64,000 bases of DNA, from contig WRPG01000021.1 in NCBI GenBank assembly GCA_009773355.1, positions 2,394 to 66,393 of the forward strand, written 5' to 3'. Each line of letters opens with the position of its first letter. Within the stretch, counting starts at the first letter, position 1. The translations under genes were made by a program, and so were the position numbers. This document shows, one piece after another, positions 25,960 to 62,771 of this stretch. Origin of the DNA: Limisphaerales bacterium. GTDB lineage: Bacteria > Verrucomicrobiota > Verrucomicrobiia > Limisphaerales > SXTU01. The notes under the pieces were generated by a model. That model worked only from the letters and a program-made list of their open reading frames with translations, did not search any database and was not told the origin of the DNA.

Positions 25960-27300
25960 TCAACCCCGCTTTGCCGCCTGCCACTCGTTCAAGCCCCGCT
26001 CTCCCGCCGCCGCGTCCAGGCCGAGCAGCTCCATCGCCTCGCCGATGAGGTAGAGCGAGCCTGCAACCAGCGCCCGCGGCTCGTCCGTCAAGGCCGCGAG
26101 CGCGTCCCGGGCCGACTCATGCGCCGTGACCCGCGCCGCCGGATTTGCCCGGCGGCAAAACTCCGCCAGCGCCGCCGGCTCCAGCGACCGGTTGCTGCCC
26201 ACCCGCACCGCCGCGATGCGCCGCGCCAGCGGGGCCAGTTCCCGGCACATGAGTTCGCAGTCCTTGTCCGCCAGCATCCCCACGAGGAGGGCGAAGGGCT
26301 GGCCGCCAAACTCGCCCTTCAGCGCCGTCACCAGTGCGCGAACGCCGTCGGAGTTGTGCGCGCCGTCGAGGAGAAACTCCCTCCCGCCCACCTTCGCCAC
26401 CTGCAAGCGCCCGGCCCACTGAACCGCTTCCAGCCCGCGCCAAAGCGCCGGCTCGCTCACCGGCAGCGTGGCCTGCAACGCCCGCACCACTGCCACCGCG
26501 AGCGCCGCGTTCCGGCGCTGGTGCGCCCCGCGCAACGGCAGCGCGACCGGAGCGCCGGTTTCCAAACCGGCTTTGCGTTCCTCCGCGACGAGCGTGAAGG
26601 GCGCTCCACACCGCTCCGCGGCGTCACGGATCACCGCCACCGCCTCCGGCGCGTCCGTCGCCGTGAGCACCGGCACGCGCGGCTTGATGATGCCCGCCTT
26701 CTCCGCCGCGATCTTCGCCAGCGTGTCCCCGAGCCACTGTTGATGGTCGAAGGCGATGTTCGTGATGACGCTCGCCAGCGGCGTCACGATGTTTGTCGCA
26801 TCCAGCCGCCCACCCAGCCCGGTCTCCCAAATCACCAGATCGCACTTCTGCTCCGCGAAATACTTCAGCGCCATGACCGTGATGAACTCGAAGAGTGTCG
26901 GTGGAGAGTTGGGGGAGTGATTAGTAATTAGTGATTGAGTGTTTGGTGGGGCGGCGGCGGCTGGCTGACTATTTACCAAACACTGATTACTAATTACTTC
27001 TTCCACCAACCGCGCCACGTCCGCCTCGCTGATCAACTCCCGATCCACCTGTATCCGCTCGCGGAACGAAACCAGATGCGGCGATGTGAACAGCCCCACG
27101 CGCAAACCCGCCGTCCGGTAAATGCTCTCCAGCATCGCGCAGGTGGAGCCTTTCCCATTTGTTCCTGCCAAATGGATGAACCGCAGCCGGTCCTGCGGAT
27201 TGCCCAGTGCCGCCGCCAGCCGCCGCGTCGTCTCCAGGCCGAACTGCGCGCCAAAGACGGCCAGCCCGTGCAGGTAATCCAGCGCTTCCGCGTAAGTCAT
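25960..27300 (-). CDS. folC: Bifunctional folylpolyglutamate synthase / dihydrofolate synthase
   Basis: P-loop HLAGTNGKGST, FTSPHLVSFRERI, WETGLGGRLDATNIV, NIAFDHQQWLG. ATG at 27300 (TTG at 27309 is an alternative). Confidence 0.88.
   Translation of the reverse strand: MTYAEALDYLHGLAVFGAQFGLETTRRLAAALGNPQDRLRFIHLAGTNGKGSTCAMLESIYRTAGLRVGLFTSPHLVSFRERIQVDRELISEADVARLVEEVISNQCLVNSQPAAAAPPNTQSLITNHSPNSPPTLFEFITVMALKYFAEQKCDLVIWETGLGGRLDATNIVTPLASVITNIAFDHQQWLGDTLAKIAAEKAGIIKPRVPVLTATDAPEAVAVIRDAAERCGAPFTLVAEERKAGLETGAPVALPLRGAHQRRNAALAVAVVRALQATLPVSEPALWRGLEAVQWAGRLQVAKVGGREFLLDGAHNSDGVRALVTALKGEFGGQPFALLVGMLADKDCELMCRELAPLARRIAAVRVGSNRSLEPAALAEFCRRANPAARVTAHESARDALAALTDEPRALVAGSLYLIGEAMELLGLDAAAGERGLNEWQAAKRG
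26917..26997. repeat. 81-nt AT-rich heptamer-based palindrome embedded in frame in folC
   Basis: gtgattagtaattagtgattgagtgtttggt ... accaaacactgattactaattac (arms differ at about 3 of 24 positions). Encodes ISNQCLVNSQPAAAAPPNTQSLITNHS between conserved FolC blocks. Confidence 0.8.
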
Positions 27301-27321
27301 CGTGCGCAAACCGTGCCCTCC

Positions 27322-28101
27322 TCAAACCCGCTCCAGCAACACCAGAAACTCCTTGTTCCCCGCCGGCCCCAGCAATGGCGATTCCGTCACGCCGCGCCAC
27401 GCGGTGCCCGGCAGGTCGGACTTCACAAACGCTTCCAGCTCCGCCAGCACGCGCGCATGAACCACCGGGTCCGTGATCACGCCCTCGCCCTTGTCCGCCT
27501 CCGCCTTGCCCGCCTCGAACTGCGGCTTCACAAGCGCCACGATGCGCCCGTCGGGAGCCAGCAGCGCCACCGCCGCCGGCAGAATCTTGCGCAGGGAAAT
27601 GAACGAGCAATCCACCACCACCAGCGGGACTGCGAACACGCCTTCATTCCGCATTCCACATTCTGCACTCCGCATTTGACCGAGCCGCTCCGCCGTCAGC
27701 TCCCGGGCATTCGTCTTCTCCAGCACCACCACGCGCGGGTCGTTGCGCAGCTTCCACGCGAGCTGCCCCTGCCCCACGTCCACCGCGAAGACCCGCGCCG
27801 CGCCGCGTTGCAGCAGGCAATCGGTGAAGCCGCCCGTGCTCGCGCCGAGGTCCACCGCCGTCAGCCCGCGCACGTCGAGAGCGAAGTGCTCCAGCGCGTG
27901 CTCCAGCTTGTGCCCGCCCCGGCTCACGAACTTCTCCGTCGCCTCGAGCGCGAGCGTGTCGGCCTCGCGCACGAGATCGCTGGCCTTGCGGGCGACCTGG
28001 CCGTTCACGCGCACCAGTCCGGCCATCACGGCGCGCTTGGCCTTCTCGCGGCTTTCGCAAAGCCCGCGCGCCACCAACGCCTGATCCAGCCGCGAATTCA
28101 T
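27322..28101 (-). CDS. tlyA: TlyA-family rRNA 2'-O-methyltransferase (S4 domain + FtsJ-like MTase)
   Basis: MNSRLDQALVARGLCESREKAKRAVMAGLVRVNG (S4), FVSRGGHKLEHAL, AVDLGASTGGFTDCLLQRGA, DCSFISLRKILP, LVKPQFEAG. Confidence 0.88.
   Translation of the reverse strand: MNSRLDQALVARGLCESREKAKRAVMAGLVRVNGQVARKASDLVREADTLALEATEKFVSRGGHKLEHALEHFALDVRGLTAVDLGASTGGFTDCLLQRGAARVFAVDVGQGQLAWKLRNDPRVVVLEKTNARELTAERLGQMRSAECGMRNEGVFAVPLVVVDCSFISLRKILPAAVALLAPDGRIVALVKPQFEAGKAEADKGEGVITDPVVHARVLAELEAFVKSDLPGTAWRGVTESPLLGPAGNKEFLVLLERV
27645..27679. repeat. Five tandem heptamers (cattccg cattcca cattctg cactccg catttga) inside tlyA
   Basis: 7-nt periodicity read directly from the sequence. Encodes QMRSAECGMRNEG, in a loop that is much shorter in TlyA proteins I recall. 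Confidence 0.7.
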
Positions 28102-28133
28102 AGCCGCGAGCCTGCCGCGAACGCCCGCCCTGA

Positions 28134-28167
28134 CAAAGCCAAAAGCCGCGGGCGATGGCTCGCGGCT
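28134..28167 (-). terminator. Possible intrinsic terminator after the 28217..28972 gene
   Basis: On the minus strand: agccgcg-agccatcgcc-cgcggct followed by tttggctttg. 7-bp GC stem with a partial T-tract. Confidence 0.35.
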
Positions 28168-28216
28168 GCTGCTGCCGTTTGAGTGAAAAGTGCCGGGGCG
28201 CAACCGCGTTGCTCCA

Positions 28217-33024: not shown

Positions 33025-33034
33025 CGGCGGGGGC

Positions 33035-33129
33035 AGTATTCAGTAATCAGCGTTCAGTTTCCAGTAGGCAGTTTCCTGAGGTCGCACGGCTTGCCGCCAC
33101 TGAACACTGAAAACTGCTTGCTGAATACT
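33035..33129. repeat. Heptamer-periodic hairpin in a divergent promoter region
   Basis: Left arm tattcag taatcag cgttcag tttccag taggcag (NNNNcag x5). Right arm tgaacac tgaaaac tgcttgc tgaatac (tgNNNNc x4; with the preceding c each unit reads ctgNNNN). The arms are imperfectly complementary. Confidence 0.75.
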
Positions 33130-33186
33130 TCCTTGCTGGCCGCTGATTGCTAACCGCTCCCTCCCCGCCTACTCTGCTCACCAGCG

Positions 33187-35990: not shown

Positions 35991-36671
35991 ATGGCAAAGA
36001 TATTGGTCGTGGATGACGAACCGGATGCCGTTGAACTGGTCGAGTTCAACTTGAAGAACGCCGGCTTCGAGGTGGTCACGGCGGCGGATGGCGCAGAGGC
36101 GCTCAAGAAGGCGCGCGCGGCGCTGCCCGATCTCATCGTGCTGGACCTGATGATTCCCGAGGTGGACGGCTTGGAGGTGTGCAAGCTGCTGCGGCGCGAC
36201 GCGGCCACGGCGGGTATCCCCATTCTCATGCTCACGGCGAAGGCGGCGGAGATTGACCGTGTGCTGGGCCTCGAACTCGGCGCGGACGATTACGTGACCA
36301 AGCCGTTCAGCCCGCGCGAGCTGATGCTGCGCATCAAGGGCCTGCTGCGTCGCCGCGAGACGACCGAGGCCAAGGCGGAGCGGATGCAGTTCGGCGACCT
36401 TGTGCTCGACGTGCCCGCGCACAGCCTCACGGTGAACAACAAGCGCGTGGAGCTGACCGCCACGGAGTTCAAGCTGCTCACCATCCTCGCGCAGCGGCGC
36501 GGCCGGGTGCAATCGCGCGACCAGTTGCTCAAGGACGTGTGGGAATACGACAACGTCATAGACACGCGCACCGTGGACACGCACATGCGGCGGCTGCGGG
36601 AGAAGCTGGGCAAGGCGGCGAAGCACTTGGATACCGTGCGAGGGGTCGGCTATCGCTTTGTGGCGGGGTGA
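35991..36671 (+). CDS. OmpR/PhoB-family response regulator
   Basis: MAKILVVDDEPD...DLIVLDLMIPEVDG...LTAK (REC) and winged-helix output LTATEFKLLTILAQRRGRVQSRDQLL...VDTHMRRLREKL...VRGVGYRF. Confidence 0.9.
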   Translation: MAKILVVDDEPDAVELVEFNLKNAGFEVVTAADGAEALKKARAALPDLIVLDLMIPEVDGLEVCKLLRRDAATAGIPILMLTAKAAEIDRVLGLELGADDYVTKPFSPRELMLRIKGLLRRRETTEAKAERMQFGDLVLDVPAHSLTVNNKRVELTATEFKLLTILAQRRGRVQSRDQLLKDVWEYDNVIDTRTVDTHMRRLREKLGKAAKHLDTVRGVGYRFVAG

Positions 36672-36749
36672 GACGTAATGCGTAATGCGTAAAACGTAAG
36701 GGCCACCGGCGCTCGACGCCCTGCTTGGTTACGTTTTACGTTTTACGTC
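36672..36749. repeat. cgtaaNN/NNttacg heptamer hairpin between response regulator and kinase genes
   Basis: cgtaatg cgtaatg cgtaaaa cgtaagg - 25-nt spacer - ggttacg ttttacg ttttacg. Starts 1 nt after the regulator stop codon. Confidence 0.85.
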
Positions 36750-36778
36750 TCCCCTCCTTCCCAGCCATTCTCCACCCG

Positions 36779-40981: not shown

Positions 40982-43900
40982 TCAGCCTTTTGCAATCATC
41001 TCGTCGAGGTTCAAAAGCGCGCGGGCGAGGGCGGTCCAGGCGGCGCGGTCGTTGGCGTCGCCATCGCCTTTGCCGGCGAAGTCGGCGGCCTTGAGTTCGC
41101 CGCTGGCGAAGCGGGCGCGTTGGGTCTCGAAGAACTTCACGAGTTGGGCGCGTTCGTTGGCAGTGGGCGGGCGGGTGAGGCAGCGGCGGAAGAGGGTTTC
41201 CACACGGGTCTCGATGCTGCCGGGCTGCGCGGCGAGCTGGCGGCCGAGGGCTTGGGCGGCTTCGAGGATGACGGTGTCATTGAGCAGGGTGAGCGCTTGG
41301 AGCGGCGTGTTCGAGACGTCGCGGCGGGCGACGCAGGCTTCGCCGCTGGGGCCGTCGAAGGTGTTGAACATCGCGTAGGGCGCGGAGCGTTTGGCGAAGG
41401 TGTAGAGGCCGCGGCGGTAGCGGTCTTCGCCCTTGCTCTCGTCCCATGACTTGCCGCCATACACGCCTTCCTGCGTGACGCTCGCGGGCTGCGGCGGGAA
41501 GACGCTCGGCCCGCCAATCTTCGGCGAAAGCAGCCCGCTCGCGCGCAGGACGGAATCGCGGATGAGTTCGGCGTCGAGGCGTGAGCGGGGGAAGCGGGAG
41601 AGCAGGCGGTTGTCGGGGTCGGTAGCCGCCGAGGTGAGGAGGCGGATTGGTGGCGTGGAAGGTTCAGTCCGCCTCCTGACCTCGGCGGCTACAGCGCTGC
41701 TCTGCTGGTAAGTGGCGCTGGTCACGATGAGCTTGTGCAACAGCTTCAGCGACCAGTCATGCTTCATGAACTCCACCGCCAGCCAGTCGAGCAGCTCCGG
41801 GTGCGTCGGCGCGTCGCCTTGCAGACCGAAGTCCTCGGTGGTGCGCACGAGGCCGCGCCCGAAGAACGCGGCCCACTGGCGGTTCACGGTGACGCGCGCA
41901 GTGAGCGGGTTCTCGGGCGAGACGAGCCATTGCGCGAAGCCGAGGCGGTTCTTTGGGGCGGCGGCTGGCAATGGGTTCAAGACGCCGAGCACGGTGGGCG
42001 CGACGGCTTCCTTCGGCGACAGAAACTCGCCGCGATGATGGCGGTGCGTGGGGCGCGGGTTCTCCAGCGGGCGCTCGCGCAAGACGAGGGTGGTCTGGTG
42101 GACGGGCGGTTTGCGCAAGCGCTCGATTTCAGCCCGCGCGGATTTCAGCTCGGGCGCGACGAGGAGGAATTGTTCGCGGAGCTTGGCGCGTTGGGCGGTG
42201 GTGAGTTGCGCCTCGGGCACGCGGAGCAACGCCTCGGCCTCCTCGGTCAACTCACTGGCGGCGGCCTGCGCTTCGGTCGTGGCGGAGAGGCGGAACCGGC
42301 CCAGCGAACAGGCGTAATGGCGGCCAAACTGAAGCAGCACTTCAAGGTCGCCAGTCGCTGCGAGCGGTTGGTCGAAGTGGAAAACCGCGACGTGTCGTTC
42401 GCCAAAGCGCTCGAAGACACCCCAACCCGTTTCGGGGTTGCCATCAATCGCCAGCGCTGCGGACGACCTGTCACCGCCGAGCCAGAGCTTCGCATAGGTC
42501 TGTGATGCCCGGGCGAGCTTCACGGGCTGGCTGGCTGCCTTCACGCGGAATTCACCGAGGAAGAAATCGCCTTTGGGACCTTCGTAATACGCCATGCCTG
42601 GCCCGTGCGCGGGCAGGCGGTCGTCGGGCAAGGCTTCGAGGCGAAGCGCGGCGGTTCCGGCTAGAACGCTCTTGAAGCGAAGTGTGTAAGTGTCGTTCTT
42701 GCTGATGTCTCCGCTCGCGAAGATGGAGCTGTCTGGCTGCACCGTGAGGAGCGGGAGGTTGGACTTGGCTTCGTCGGGGCGGAGTGTCGTCCACGTCACG
42801 ACGCGGGCGCGCTCGGCTTTGAGCCATGTGGCAAATCTCCTTTCCAGATGCTTGGCTCCCGGCACCGGCGGAGTGGAGTTTGTGTCCGCCGGAAACTGTC
42901 TCGGCAGCCCGGCCAGCAGGGTGGCGGCGCGCTCCAGATTCTTGCGGTGCAGTTCATCCAGCGCCGCGTCGGGCAGGTCCTGGTCCGGCTCGTCGGCGTT
43001 GTTGAGGAAGGCCATCACGCCGTAATACTCCGTCTGGGGAATGGGATCGAACTTGTGCGTGTGGCACTGCGCGCACATCAGTGTCAGGCCCAGCCAGGTT
43101 GTGCCGGTGGTGGCCACGCGGTCGGCCATCGCGTAGAAGCGGAACTCCAGCGGGTCAATGCCGCCTTCCTCATTCAGCATCGTGTTTCGGTGGAAGCCCG
43201 TCGCGACGAGCGGGTCCAAACCTTGAACCTTGAACCTTGAACCTTGAACTGCTGGCAAGAGGTCGCCGGCGAGCTGCTGGATGGTGAACTGGTCGAAGGG
43301 AAGGCCCTCGTTCAGCGCGCGGATGACCCAGTCGCGCCAAGGCCAAATGTTGCGCGGGCGGTCTTTCTCGTAGCCGTTGGTGTCGGCGTAGCGGGCGAGG
43401 TCGAGCCACTTGCGCGCCCAGCGTTCGCCGTAGTGCGGGGAGGCGAGCAGTTTGTCCACGAGCGCGGCGATGACCTTCAGCTCACTTTCCCGCCTTCTCA
43501 CCTGCCCACTTTCGCCGGCAGCCGGTGAGAAAGTGGGAGAGCGGGAAAGTGAGAGCTGGCGCACGAAGTCATCGGCTTCCTCCGGCGTCGGCGGCAGGCC
43601 GATGAGGTCGAGGTAAAGGCGGCGGACGAGCGTGTAGTCGTCGGCGGGTGGCGACGGCTTCAAGCCTTCCTTCTCCAGCCGCGCGAGGATGAAGTGGTCA
43701 ATGGCGTTCTGCGGCCAGCCGGCTTGCTTCACCTTCGGCAATGCAGCCTGCTTCGGTTTGATGAACGCCCAGTGCGGCTGGTAATCCGCTCCGGAGGCGA
43801 CCCAGCGGCGGAACGTGTCCATCTCGGCGGGCGTGAGGTGCTTCTTCGTCTCCGGCGGCGGCATGACCTTGTTGTGGTCGGTGCTGGTGATGCGGCGGAC

Positions 43901-44158
43901 GAGTTCGCTCTGGTCGGGCTTGCCGGGGACGAGGGCGCGCTTGCCGGACTTGGCCGGCTTGAGCGCGGCCTCGCGGAGGTCGAGGCGGAGGCCGGCCTTG
44001 CGCGCGTGTTCATCCGGCCCGTGGCAGGCGAAACACTGGCGAGAGAGAATGGGGCGGACATCGCGCTGAAAATCCGGCGCGGGCGCGGCGGCGAAGATTG
44101 GTAGCGCGCCCAGCAGGGCGGCGAAAGCGGTGGCAAATGGTTTCACGCGGCGAATCAC
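40982..44158 (-). CDS. PSCyt1-DUF1549-DUF1553 (PSD1) protein
   Basis: GTG start at 44158 gives MIRRVKPFATAFAALLGALPIFAAAPAP. Heme-like CFACHGPDEH. DUF1549 block LVRRLYLDLIGLPPTPEE. DUF1553 block CAQCHTHKFDPI. The longer ORF to 45046 overlaps the ApbE gene and is R/A/P-rich. Confidence 0.85.
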   Translation of the reverse strand: MIRRVKPFATAFAALLGALPIFAAAPAPDFQRDVRPILSRQCFACHGPDEHARKAGLRLDLREAALKPAKSGKRALVPGKPDQSELVRRITSTDHNKVMPPPETKKHLTPAEMDTFRRWVASGADYQPHWAFIKPKQAALPKVKQAGWPQNAIDHFILARLEKEGLKPSPPADDYTLVRRLYLDLIGLPPTPEEADDFVRQLSLSRSPTFSPAAGESGQVRRRESELKVIAALVDKLLASPHYGERWARKWLDLARYADTNGYEKDRPRNIWPWRDWVIRALNEGLPFDQFTIQQLAGDLLPAVQGSRFKVQGLDPLVATGFHRNTMLNEEGGIDPLEFRFYAMADRVATTGTTWLGLTLMCAQCHTHKFDPIPQTEYYGVMAFLNNADEPDQDLPDAALDELHRKNLERAATLLAGLPRQFPADTNSTPPVPGAKHLERRFATWLKAERARVVTWTTLRPDEAKSNLPLLTVQPDSSIFASGDISKNDTYTLRFKSVLAGTAALRLEALPDDRLPAHGPGMAYYEGPKGDFFLGEFRVKAASQPVKLARASQTYAKLWLGGDRSSAALAIDGNPETGWGVFERFGERHVAVFHFDQPLAATGDLEVLLQFGRHYACSLGRFRLSATTEAQAAASELTEEAEALLRVPEAQLTTAQRAKLREQFLLVAPELKSARAEIERLRKPPVHQTTLVLRERPLENPRPTHRHHRGEFLSPKEAVAPTVLGVLNPLPAAAPKNRLGFAQWLVSPENPLTARVTVNRQWAAFFGRGLVRTTEDFGLQGDAPTHPELLDWLAVEFMKHDWSLKLLHKLIVTSATYQQSSAVAAEVRRRTEPSTPPIRLLTSAATDPDNRLLSRFPRSRLDAELIRDSVLRASGLLSPKIGGPSVFPPQPASVTQEGVYGGKSWDESKGEDRYRRGLYTFAKRSAPYAMFNTFDGPSGEACVARRDVSNTPLQALTLLNDTVILEAAQALGRQLAAQPGSIETRVETLFRRCLTRPPTANERAQLVKFFETQRARFASGELKAADFAGKGDGDANDRAAWTALARALLNLDEMIAKG
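41622..41692. repeat. 25-bp-arm palindrome inside the DUF1553 coding region (same family as 29030-29106)
   Basis: gtagccgccgaggtgaggaggcgga - loop - tccgcctcctgacctcggcggctac (1 mismatch). Translated as AAEVRRRTEPSTPPIRLLTSAAT. Confidence 0.85.
43221..43248. repeat. Four tandem ccttgaa heptamers inside the DUF1549 region
   Basis: ccttgaa x4 read directly. Translated as VQGSRFKVQG just before the conserved ATGFHRN block. Confidence 0.85.
43478..43558. repeat. 81-nt imperfect palindrome inside the DUF1549/DUF1553 gene
   Basis: cagctcactttcccgccttctcacctgcccactttc ... gagaaagtgggagagcgggaaagtgagagctg. ctcactttcccgc pairs with gcgggaaagtgag. Translated as QLSLSRSPTFSPAAGESGQVRRRESEL. Confidence 0.7.
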
Positions 44159-44201
44159 GACGGGAGAATAGACGAGTGGAAGGCGCGAGGGAATGCGTGA
44201 A

Positions 44202-44297
44202 AGTAGGACAGCGCGCCCCGCCTGTCTGTCTGACTGAAAGCTTCCGCTTGAGCGGGCGAAACTAGATGGTAGGTCAGGCGGGACGCGCTGACCTACT
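44202..44297. repeat. ~95-nt palindrome-ended element, copy A of 3
   Basis: agtaggacagcgcgccccgcctgtc...ccgcttgagcgg...gtcaggcgggacgcgctgacctact. The TAG stop of the ApbE gene (44293-44295) lies in the terminal arm. Confidence 0.85.
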
Positions 44298-45372
44298 TGT
44301 CGTAGAAGCGTGCGAAGCTCGGCGACTCCGAGACTTCGACGCGTTCGCCGGGCTTGCGGACGACGCGGGCGGATGCACCGGGCGTGCCGTTCACTAATGC
44401 CAACCCGCGCTCTGGGCCGACTACGCACGTCGTCGTGGAGAGGCTGTTCGCCGTCACGCAATCGCGCGCGATGACCGTCACGAGGCTGTGGTCGGTCATG
44501 CCCAGGCCCGTGTGCGGGTCCACGATGTGGGAGTAGCGCTTGCCGCCCAGCTCGACGTGCTGGAACAAATCGCCGGAGGTCGCGAAGCCGCAGTTGCGGA
44601 GCGAAAGGAACTGCGTGGGCGGGGCACCGGGCGCGTCGAGCGGCGCGAGCTCGATGCGCCAGCCGGTGCGACCCGGCGGCGGGTCGCCGAGAGCCATGTC
44701 GCCGCTGCCGGTGACGAGCGCGCGGGGGATGCCGTGACTGCGTAACTCGCGAAGCGCTTCGTCGAGCGCACGTCCCTTGGCGATGGAGCCGAGGTCGAGG
44801 CGCATTCCTGACACGAGCAGCTTCGCGGTGTGCGCGCGCGGGTCGAGGACAACCTTCTGCCAGCCGACACGGGACTTGGCCTCCGCGATGACTTCGGGCG
44901 TGGGCAGTTCGCGCTGTCGCCGCGCGCGTCGCCAAACTTGCACGAGGGGACCGACGGTGATGTCGAACGCGCCGTCCGACCGTCGCGACATGGTTTCCGC
45001 TATGTTCAGCAGGCGCCATAACTCGTCGCTCACGGGCACAGCGCAACCGCTGCCGGAGCTGCGGGACAGCAGGGTCAACTCGCTGTCATCCTCGTAGTCG
45101 CTGAAGACTTGGTTCAGCTCCGCGACGCGGGCGAAGGCGGCGCGGGCAGCGGCTTCAGCGAGGCTCGGACTCTCCGCATACAACACGATGCGGAAGGGCA
45201 GGCCCATCTGCGGCTGCTCGAACTCGAAGCGTTGGAGTGCCGATGGCGATGTGGTGCGGCAGGCATTCGCGCCAAGCAACGCGAAGGGGAGCAGGAGCAG
45301 GCTGGCGCGGCGTGATTGAAGGTGTGCGTCGGCGTGCGTCTCGGTCCGTCCCCTCACCCCGGCCCTTTCCAT
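44293..45372 (-). CDS. apbE: FAD:protein FMN transferase (ApbE family)
   Basis: AFDITVGPLV, LDLGSIAKGRALD and YSHIVDPHTGLG are ApbE signatures. ATG at 45372 (MERAGVRG...LLLLPFALLGANAC). Confidence 0.85.
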   Translation of the reverse strand: MERAGVRGRTETHADAHLQSRRASLLLLPFALLGANACRTTSPSALQRFEFEQPQMGLPFRIVLYAESPSLAEAAARAAFARVAELNQVFSDYEDDSELTLLSRSSGSGCAVPVSDELWRLLNIAETMSRRSDGAFDITVGPLVQVWRRARRQRELPTPEVIAEAKSRVGWQKVVLDPRAHTAKLLVSGMRLDLGSIAKGRALDEALRELRSHGIPRALVTGSGDMALGDPPPGRTGWRIELAPLDAPGAPPTQFLSLRNCGFATSGDLFQHVELGGKRYSHIVDPHTGLGMTDHSLVTVIARDCVTANSLSTTTCVVGPERGLALVNGTPGASARVVRKPGERVEVSESPSFARFYDK

Positions 45373-49197: not shown

Positions 49198-49298
49198 GAC
49201 GGAATGCGTAATGGGTAATGCGTAAAACGTAAGGCGGGCGTTTGAACCCGTGACGCGCGTGGTGACTGGGTTACGCATTACGTTTTACGTTTTACTCC
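49198..49298. repeat. cgtaaNN/NNttacg heptamer hairpin
   Basis: cggaatg cgtaatg ggtaatg cgtaaaa cgtaagg - spacer - ggttacg cattacg ttttacg ttttact. Fills the whole gap between two co-oriented genes. Confidence 0.85.
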
Positions 49299-62578: not shown

Positions 62579-62640
62579 GCTTCGGGTGGCAACCGCCTCC
62601 GGCGGACCGCGTCGTGGCGTCCCGACCGACGCGAGGTGAA

Positions 62641-62719
62641 CGCGTGATGCGTAAGACGTGAAACGTAAAACGTATGGGTGTTGGGCGTCCGCTTACGTTT
62701 TACGCATTACGCATTACGC
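62641..62719. repeat. cgtaaNN/NNttacg heptamer hairpin
   Basis: cgtgatg cgtaaga cgtgaaa cgtaaaa cgtatgg - spacer - gcttacg ttttacg cattacg cattacg. Confidence 0.85.
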
Positions 62720-62771
62720 TCGCCTGCGCTTTCACCTGTCCGCTCCGCGCGCTAGCTGCTTCACTTCCCCC

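Follow-up and report, generated by a model that had tools for sequence, protein, structure and literature searches.

A hairpin insert in folC

The gene folC, which encodes the bifunctional folylpolyglutamate/dihydrofolate synthase, lies on the minus strand of a 64,000-nucleotide stretch of Limisphaerales contig WRPG01000021.1 (called the window here), and it holds, in frame, a palindrome made of AT-rich heptamers that is the subject of this work. A database entry under the name FolC, from a metagenome-assembled genome (MAG) of Limisphaerales (Verrucomicrobiota), matches the 449-residue open reading frame (ORF) with 100% identity. Pfam places Mur_ligase_M/C and FOL3_C in that protein, and the ORF matches FolC/FPGS structures in the PDB with E-values down to 7e-72. 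Translation likely starts at the ATG at 27300 because the orthologues begin with MTYAEAL. The ORF is intact, and its codon statistics outside the insert are normal.

The arms of the palindrome are tandem AT-rich heptamers (AGTRATY and its complement) that surround a GC-rich loop and are closed by a clamp of a G-run and a C-run (Table 1). In the sense of the mRNA, positions 26908-27010 fold as one long imperfect stem-loop of about 100 nt, with an energy of -33.7 kcal/mol versus -15.0 +/- 2.8 in dinucleotide shuffles (z = -6.8; 0/200 shuffles as good). The GC content of the element is 0.47-0.50, against 0.66 for the window average. On the plus strand, two arm pairs can be delimited, AGTGATTAGTAATTAGTGATTG (26916-26937 / 26977-26998; 22 nt, 86% complementary) and AGTGTTTGGT (26938-26947 / 26975-26984; 10 nt, 100% complementary), and Tandem Repeats Finder reports an AGTGATT unit of period 7, in 3.6 copies, at 26916-26941. 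The arms open with GTAATTAGT or AGTGATT and have no GTAG head. An AAACACT unit that is specific to the window gives the perfect 10-bp inner stem, which is missing from most orthologues. The central part, 26917-26997, comprises 81 nt or 27 codons (V..H), in frame with folC and without a stop. An initial annotation of this DNA had described just such an 81-nt AT-rich palindrome within folC, with near-perfect inverted arms of 7-nt words; its sequence, coordinates and open frame agree with our analysis, as does the extent of the 27-codon segment, and only the quoted peptide was off, by a trivial shift of one codon.

Table 1. Features of the folC insert, the neighboring gene and the other hairpins of the window
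Feature	Position	Strand	Basis or remark
folC (bifunctional folylpolyglutamate/dihydrofolate synthase) ORF	25960..27309	minus	449 aa, ORF list
Whole stem-loop, including outer G-rich/C-rich clamp	26908..27010	minus	RNA fold, z = -6.8
Clamp: GUUGGUGGAAGAAG (codes LVEE) pairs with CUCCCCCAAC (codes SPN)	within 26908..27010	minus	RNA fold
5' arm (mRNA sense) AGTAATT AGTAATC AGTGTTT GGT, codes (V)ISNQCLV	26975..26998	minus	Sequence, repeat search, orthologue alignment
GC-rich loop, codes NSQPAAAAP	26948..26974	minus	Length and sequence hypervariable among orthologues (orthologue alignments)
3' arm (mRNA sense) ACC AAACACT CAATCACT AATTACT AATCACT, codes PNTQSLITNH	26916..26947	minus	Best-conserved part
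tlyA-like S4+FtsJ gene	27322..28203	minus
Intergenic hairpin, ACGTAAT units	36671-36751		z -5.7; begins right after stop codon
Intergenic hairpin, GCGTAAT units	49200-49295		z -3.0
Intergenic hairpin, ACGTAAA units	62640-62721		z -4.1
Hairpin in divergent intergenic region, CAGTAAT, CAGCGTT and CAGTTTC units with complements	33036-33140		z -2.1, weaker (fold of 33030-33150)

The reading frame of the insert differs from that of the repeats it resembles. In a perfect array of AGTGATT, AGTAATT or AGTAATC, each of the six frames is interrupted by stops; in the folC element one of the six, the folC frame, stays open. Each arm contains only two heptamers bearing TAA or TAG, whose stops fall in the two unused frames, and the neighboring AGTGTTT and ACTCAAT units are stop-free variants. 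The third heptamer of the 5' arm is such a variant, and it supplies a TGT codon where another AGTAATY unit would give TAA in the folC frame. The other arrays that we found in frame in genes, of CGGAATG, CAAGGTT, CAGCGGT and CAACTTT, are also stop-free in the coding orientation. The open frame may therefore be read as the footprint of a filter, in that only a version of this kind could have persisted in an essential gene.

In HMMER alignments of the protein, the structures from T. maritima (1o5z) and L. casei (1fgs) have a gap opposite the insert, with a helix on one side of it and the TxFE helix on the other. An AlphaFold2 model made with 56 homologues has a mean predicted local distance difference test score (pLDDT) of 85. 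In this model, helix 95-113 takes in VISNQCLVN and is followed by coil at 114-138 (block pLDDT 66 and 47) and by helix 139-153; across residues 111-130, between the helices, pLDDT is 47-66, and residues 245-254 form the other internal segment of low pLDDT. The insert peptide thus lengthens the preceding helix in the model and then continues as a low-confidence, probably disordered, surface loop. On the model, then, the site is a tolerated surface loop of the FolC N-terminal domain, a possibility that the initial annotation had raised.

Origin and fate of the insert

We aligned 120 FolC homologues and compared the folC DNA of 13 clade members. About 40 orthologues, of 72-84% identity, bear an insert at the identical site, and in all of these close relatives it takes the form VISxQCLVIS, 8-12 variable residues, TQSLITNHS. 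The 27-residue block is missing from distant orthologues. The spacing between RLVEE and TLFEF is 33 residues in the window protein and 10 or 14 residues in 58/89 Verrucomicrobial loci. In the mRNA sense, the clade consensus reads GAA GTAATTA GTAATCA GTGTTTA GTGATTA GTG, a GC-rich variable loop, and CACTCAAT CACTAAT TACTAAT CACT CTCCC, with 3-5 heptamers per arm in individual orthologues. Independent assemblies from NCBI, ENA, JGI and Logan, dozens in all, have the insert at this one site.

In a neighbor-joining tree made without the insert columns, sequences that bear the insert occur from the deepest branch on, and the deep-branching P0049 (= L210) keeps the arms at the nucleotide level. Lost or degenerate forms are nested within the clade: the 5' arm is gone and the 3' arm kept in L088 and L089, L002, L003 and L004 have 5'-type heptamers only, and L211 and L212 have no arms. 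The simplest history of these sequences is one old insertion in the ancestor of a Limisphaerales subclade, followed by vertical inheritance and by several decays or deletions. This history replaces the recent colonization that the initial annotation implied.

The orthologue alignment contains no recognizable flanking target-site duplication or defined termini, and the short-loop orthologues nested in the tree have the appearance of decay products. Directly 3' of the insert, L081 and L082 have CACTCTCCC CACTCTCCC ACTCTCTTC, which looks like a 9-nt direct repeat and bridges the C-rich end of the element and the native TLFE codons. The length of the PNSPP/PHSP/PPPPP tail also differs between orthologues. 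This repeat and the variable tail may represent a footprint of slippage or of a junction.

The same FolC site carries different palindromes in other Verrucomicrobial lineages (57-63% identity). In L022 (973-1059) and L030 (2417-2503), the loop is occupied in frame (RTGVAPVS...GDRRDACP) by GTAGGACAGGCGTCGCGCCTGTCTC...GAGACAGGCGCGACGCCTGTCCT, a perfect inverted repeat of 25 bp (z about -11) that has a GTAGG head and is similar to REPINs. L010 has a long GC-rich structure at the site (z -5.8), and many proteins have inserts there of the type TGFQPVS...DRQDACP or SEFRLQA...AGTPN. Across lineages, one FolC loop has accommodated at least three unrelated palindromic families: the AGTRATY hairpins, the REPIN-like repeats with the GTAGG head, and the types TGFQPVS...DRQDACP and SEFRLQA...AGTPN. 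To judge from these comparisons, the FolC loop is a recurrent insertion site in Verrucomicrobia. Sequence like that of the L022 and L030 repeats, which resemble repetitive extragenic palindromes (REPs), also occurs about 650 nt into folC at L034:1079, L050:6658-6727, L061:1403 and L063:3269; this position may be a second permissive insertion site.

Conservation of the arms

Mean pairwise nucleotide identity is 0.80 in the rest of folC, 0.87 in the 3' arm, 0.70 in the 5' arm and 0.50 in the loop. Plain third-position identity was set aside as uninformative because the bias in GC content at third codon positions (GC3) keeps most of these positions identical, and tests of A/T retention were used in its place. 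The GC3 of the genome is about 0.85, yet the arm codons end in A or T. Where an orthologue has the same amino acid as the window, these A/T-ending codons are kept in 85% of cases in the arms and 92% in the 3' arm, versus 42% elsewhere in the gene. At codon position 3, 15/19 arm columns are at least 70% A/T, versus 21/416 of the other columns (Fisher p = 8e-15, with columns taken as independent). Selection on the peptide alone would not be expected to keep such rare codons, and we infer that a constraint or a homogenizing process acts on the nucleic acid.

Pairing between the arms points in the same direction. Across 10 aligned sequences, pairing in the helix formed by columns 37-55/93-111 reaches 85%, versus 22-50% in slid controls, and 3 pairs are altered on both sides (in L084 and L085), a result that only 4/500 shuffles attained.

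Related repeats in the window and in other genomes

Heptamer arrays are abundant in this DNA. The window contains 9 period-7 arrays versus 0.55 in shuffles, with 1, 0 and 0 arrays of periods 5, 8 and 10, and the 244 kb of clade DNA contain 38, with 8, 3, 4 and 1 arrays of periods 5, 8, 10 and 11; the periods compared with 7 are those that are not multiples of 3. Four further hairpins lie in the window (Table 1), and a GC3-based gene map places them between genes, with the arrays at 36727, 49200 and 62693 being intergenic. They share an architecture of AT-rich heptamers, a GC-rich loop and complementary heptamers, often with a clamp of a G-run and a C-run. Three of the four clearly outdo shuffled sequence in folding energy (z -3.0 to -5.7). 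These three, the hairpins of ACGTAAT, GCGTAAT and ACGTAAA units, seem to be members of a second family of heptamer hairpins, one that is more abundant in the source genome. In the weaker hairpin of the divergent intergenic region, the first unit, GTAATCA, also occurs in the folC 5' arm. Heptamer repeats sit mostly between genes, near gene ends, and the other window hairpins conform to this, unlike the folC copy.

A search for the 24-nt folC arm with up to 3 mismatches found no copy in the 64-kb window beyond the element itself, but the arms, whose recurrence the initial annotation had proposed to look for, do recur in related genomes. At sites outside folC, arm sequences are present in L087 (1520-1592), where the copy overlaps a stop codon; in L089 (236-270), as a one-armed array between genes; in L147, which is another contig of the MAG that gave L084; in L157, a Limisphaerales genome whose 3' arm, CACCAAACACTCC-CTCACTAATTACTAATTACT, resembles that of the window; and in L160, a Pedosphaera genome. 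The GGGG...CCCC clamp is also present in the intergenic members L087, L147, L157 and L160.

A scan of genome contigs for AGTRATTAGTRATYAGTG gave at least 120 loci in many phyla, those in L147, L157 and L160 among them. The matches listed include Bacteroidota, Gemmatimonadota, Chloroflexota, Planctomycetota, Verrucomicrobiota, Firmicutes, Cyanobacteria, Aminicenantes and others, and among them the non-Verrucomicrobial matches show this heptamer in plain arrays or as hairpin pairs. At the loci L090-L209, AGTGATT arrays often stand beside GGGATTG, GTTTGAA, AGTTGAA and GGTGAAT arrays in one intergenic region. In high-GC genomes (Gemmatimonadaceae L125/L168/L187, and L108, L189, L194 and L207), AGTGATT hairpin pairs directly follow stop codons.

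Heptamer arrays also occur in frame in other genes. In the tlyA-like gene, CGGAATG-type heptamers at 27645-27676 code QMRSAECGMRNEG in a loop between EKTNAR and VVDCSFISL. The site holds a heptamer array in most members of the clade, with other units such as CAGCGGT in L081/82/84/85 and CAACTTT in L086/L088, and the loop is 6 residues longer in the window and in L087. A PSCyt/DUF1553-type gene (ORF 40982..45046, minus strand) has a perfect AACCTTG array of 4.4 copies at 43217-43251, in frame as AVQGSRFKVQGLDPL, and its relative in L083 has two arrays, at 562-598 and 2297-2320. The uvrC of a clade member contains the in-frame array CGATTCGACATTCGACATTCGACATTCGCAATT (L087:4847-4879), which is translated as STFDIRHSQFE.

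Discussion

We consider it probable, at roughly three chances in four, that the folC insert represents a dispersed heptamer-array hairpin in an in-frame, translated copy, which sits in a surface loop, has passed a filter of reading frame, and has its arms held at the level of the nucleic acid. Members of the family normally sit between genes, and one copy became fixed in the loop between helices 95-113 and 139-153, where it may have survived through its lack of stops in the folC frame. The conserved unit would then be the DNA or RNA stem, or the heptamer sequence itself, and not the peptide.

Two causes could hold the arms in this way. First, the stem-loop or the heptamer sequence may have a function in cis, in the tlyA-folC transcript or in the DNA, as a site of binding, processing or pausing. 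Second, slippage of the heptamers and template switching within the hairpin may re-homogenize the arms. Quasipalindrome correction by template switching is a general mutational mechanism, a process and not a family of elements, and it could account for the restored complementarity of the arms and for the perfect inner stem without selection. We would rank a cis function somewhat ahead of re-homogenization, and would leave a smaller share to selection on the peptide or to other causes.

Several observations weigh against this explanation. The statistics on A/T-ending codons disregard phylogeny as well as treating columns as independent. The covariation amounts to three single-lineage double changes among 10 related sequences, and an alternative outer register, at columns 23-32/95-104, is 93% paired and invariant, with no covariation. 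The 3' arm is conserved where the 5' arm has been lost, in L088 and L089; the stem is therefore not the sole thing conserved. The nested losses in L211 and L212 show the element to be dispensable. Searches of Rfam, at gathering thresholds for the whole window and permissively for 26700-27200, returned nothing meaningful, and a scan for promoter-like or terminator-like sites found none at the element, so that an internal promoter or an intrinsic terminator is unsupported. Finally, copies in the source genome were judged within the 64 kb only, and the loci from the wider scan are dominated by other phyla.

Four other explanations can be considered. An intein, an intron or a programmed frameshift was rejected because the insert is short, its frame is continuous and motifs are absent. 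In the first of the four, the element grew in situ, by polymerase slippage of heptamers in a tolerant loop and then by inverted duplication through template switching. Lineage-specific growth of this kind is suggested by the 5' arm, which is now GTGTTCA x3 in L082 and L086 and GGTTTCA x4 in L002, by the lineage-specific units of the in-frame arrays in the tlyA loop, and by the AAACACT unit of the window with the inner stem it creates. Heptamers are, moreover, reported to be the most frequent kind of long simple-sequence repeat, with slippage put forward as their cause (PMC4679880, PMC4692102, citing Mrazek 2007). This origin nevertheless seems unlikely because several genomes carry the arm together with the clamp (GGGGAAAGTAATTAGTGATTAGT...ACTAATTACTAATCACTTTCC) at unrelated intergenic positions, a combination that local slippage would hardly reach independently, and because slippage leaves unexplained how stop-rich AT heptamers arose within GC-rich coding sequence.

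The second explanation, a palindrome with its own consensus that was mobilized by a transposase and recently jumped into folC in frame, in the manner of Rickettsia palindromic elements (RPEs) or miniature transposable elements with inverted repeats (MITEs), is less likely still. The element is indeed palindromic, in frame and in a surface loop, its arms recur at other loci in related genomes, and in-frame fusions of RPEs are documented (PMC10969869). The host, however, belongs to Verrucomicrobiota, and the element is about 100 nt long, against about 150 for RPEs, and consists of tandem heptamers that vary in number and sequence between orthologues. Neither a target-site duplication nor defined termini are recognizable in it, and the insertion is ancient and vertically inherited. 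The same heptamers, moreover, form plain tandem arrays in many phyla, which a simple-sequence-repeat process fits better than a single transposon family.

Third, the 27-33 extra residues could be a functional insertion of FolC, with the palindrome incidental. VISxQCLVIS and TQSLITNHS are conserved throughout the clade, and the former is modeled as an extension of helix 95-113. We regard this adaptation as quite improbable because synonymous sites and rare A/T-ending codons are conserved too, the middle of the insert is hypervariable and of low pLDDT, losses are nested in several places, and the palindromes of other lineages at this position are quite different. Fourth, an artefact of assembly or annotation, or a pseudogene, is conceivable in that the source is a MAG, but it can be dismissed given the recurrence of the insert across independent assemblies, the intact ORF and the normal codon statistics outside the insert.

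Beyond the dispersed hairpin copy that we favor, a more speculative idea, to which we would give a low probability, is that heptamer-array hairpins are actively maintained, either because they homogenize themselves or because some protein or process of 7-nt register reads them, and could thus stay within essential Verrucomicrobial coding sequences over very long times. A resident hairpin would then act as a landing pad, such that hairpin begets hairpin, where otherwise each insertion would simply have passed a filter at the protein level. Such a landing pad would explain how at least three unrelated palindromic families came to occupy one FolC loop in different lineages.

A copy of such a repeat in a conserved essential gene represents a natural experiment. 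The reading frame fixes what selection on the protein would allow, and the retention of A/T-ending codons and the compensatory changes in the arms would therefore be attributable to a constraint on DNA or RNA. Our findings also extend the phenomenon known from RPEs, in which repeats are translated within housekeeping proteins, to free-living Verrucomicrobia. They bear on annotation, where inserts of this kind may look like spurious low-complexity sequence, on the engineering of FolC, in which the loop is permissive, and on the ways in which palindromic repeats shape proteins.

Comparison with known repeat families

RPEs are about 150 bp long, fall into ten families specific to Rickettsia, and encode a conserved peptide in each family (PMC10969869). 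The folC element resembles them in being a dispersed palindromic repeat that lies in frame in a housekeeping gene, is translated, and occupies a site where the fold tolerates it (PMC10969869), and the in-frame, fold-compatible insertion into an ORF is one that RPEs and this element have in common. It differs from them in its length of about 100 nt, its construction from heptamers, its hypervariable center (identity 0.50), which leaves no peptide conserved throughout, and its phylum. The host here is a Limisphaerales MAG, and the composition of the element, tandem heptamers with a variable loop, does not resemble that of a conserved 150-bp family (PMC10969869). Thus, the pattern of RPEs that the initial annotation invoked holds in part: the element is a palindromic repeat translated in frame as part of a loop in an essential enzyme whose distant orthologues lack it, but it is not an RPE, given its host, its size and the lack of a family-specific conserved core.

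With REPs and REPINs, the element shares the form of short imperfect palindromes that are dispersed and mostly extragenic. In contrast to these, it has AT-rich heptamer arms, no GTAG head and no known partner among the RAYT proteins; a GTAGG-headed palindrome is found in the same loop of L022 and L030. Of the terminal inverted repeats and target-site duplication that mark MITEs, inverted arms are present in the element, and a flanking duplication is not recognizable.

The closest known class is that of the heptameric long simple-sequence repeats. Heptamers are reported to be the most abundant class of long simple-sequence repeats, mostly intergenic, sometimes inverted and rarely in ORFs, with examples in the cyanobacterial STRR sequences, in TAACTGA of Beggiatoaceae, Cyanobacteria and Bacteroidetes, and in GGGAATC of Xanthomonas; in those accounts their function is not established and their origin is unexplained (PMC4679880, PMC4692102). 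In the passages of these papers that were consulted, Verrucomicrobiota/Limisphaerales did not turn up as a host, no search having been aimed at the phylum.

The likenesses to this class are several. The folC element and the heptameric repeats both consist of 7-nt tandem units that are AT-rich relative to the genome (PMC4679880, PMC4692102), and the reported placement, mostly intergenic near gene ends with occasional inverted pairs and occasional copies in ORFs, is that of the present repeat type. One orientation of the reported repeats has stops in all frames, as do perfect arrays of the folC heptamers, and both are scattered among phyla. TAACTGA repeats translate into peptides of the LSVISYQ type, which may be compared with VISNQCLVIS in FolC. 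The traits that define the class, a tandem period of 7 nt, an excess of period-7 arrays, a mostly intergenic location and recurrence of one heptamer in arrays of unrelated genomes, are all found here. What sets the folC element apart from the heptameric repeats as described is that it has two arrays in inverted orientation on either side of a GC-rich loop, with a G/C clamp, that it lies in the middle of an essential enzyme, whereas their coding copies lie at the periphery of hypothetical proteins, and that it is inherited within a clade, with arms conserved at the nucleotide level.

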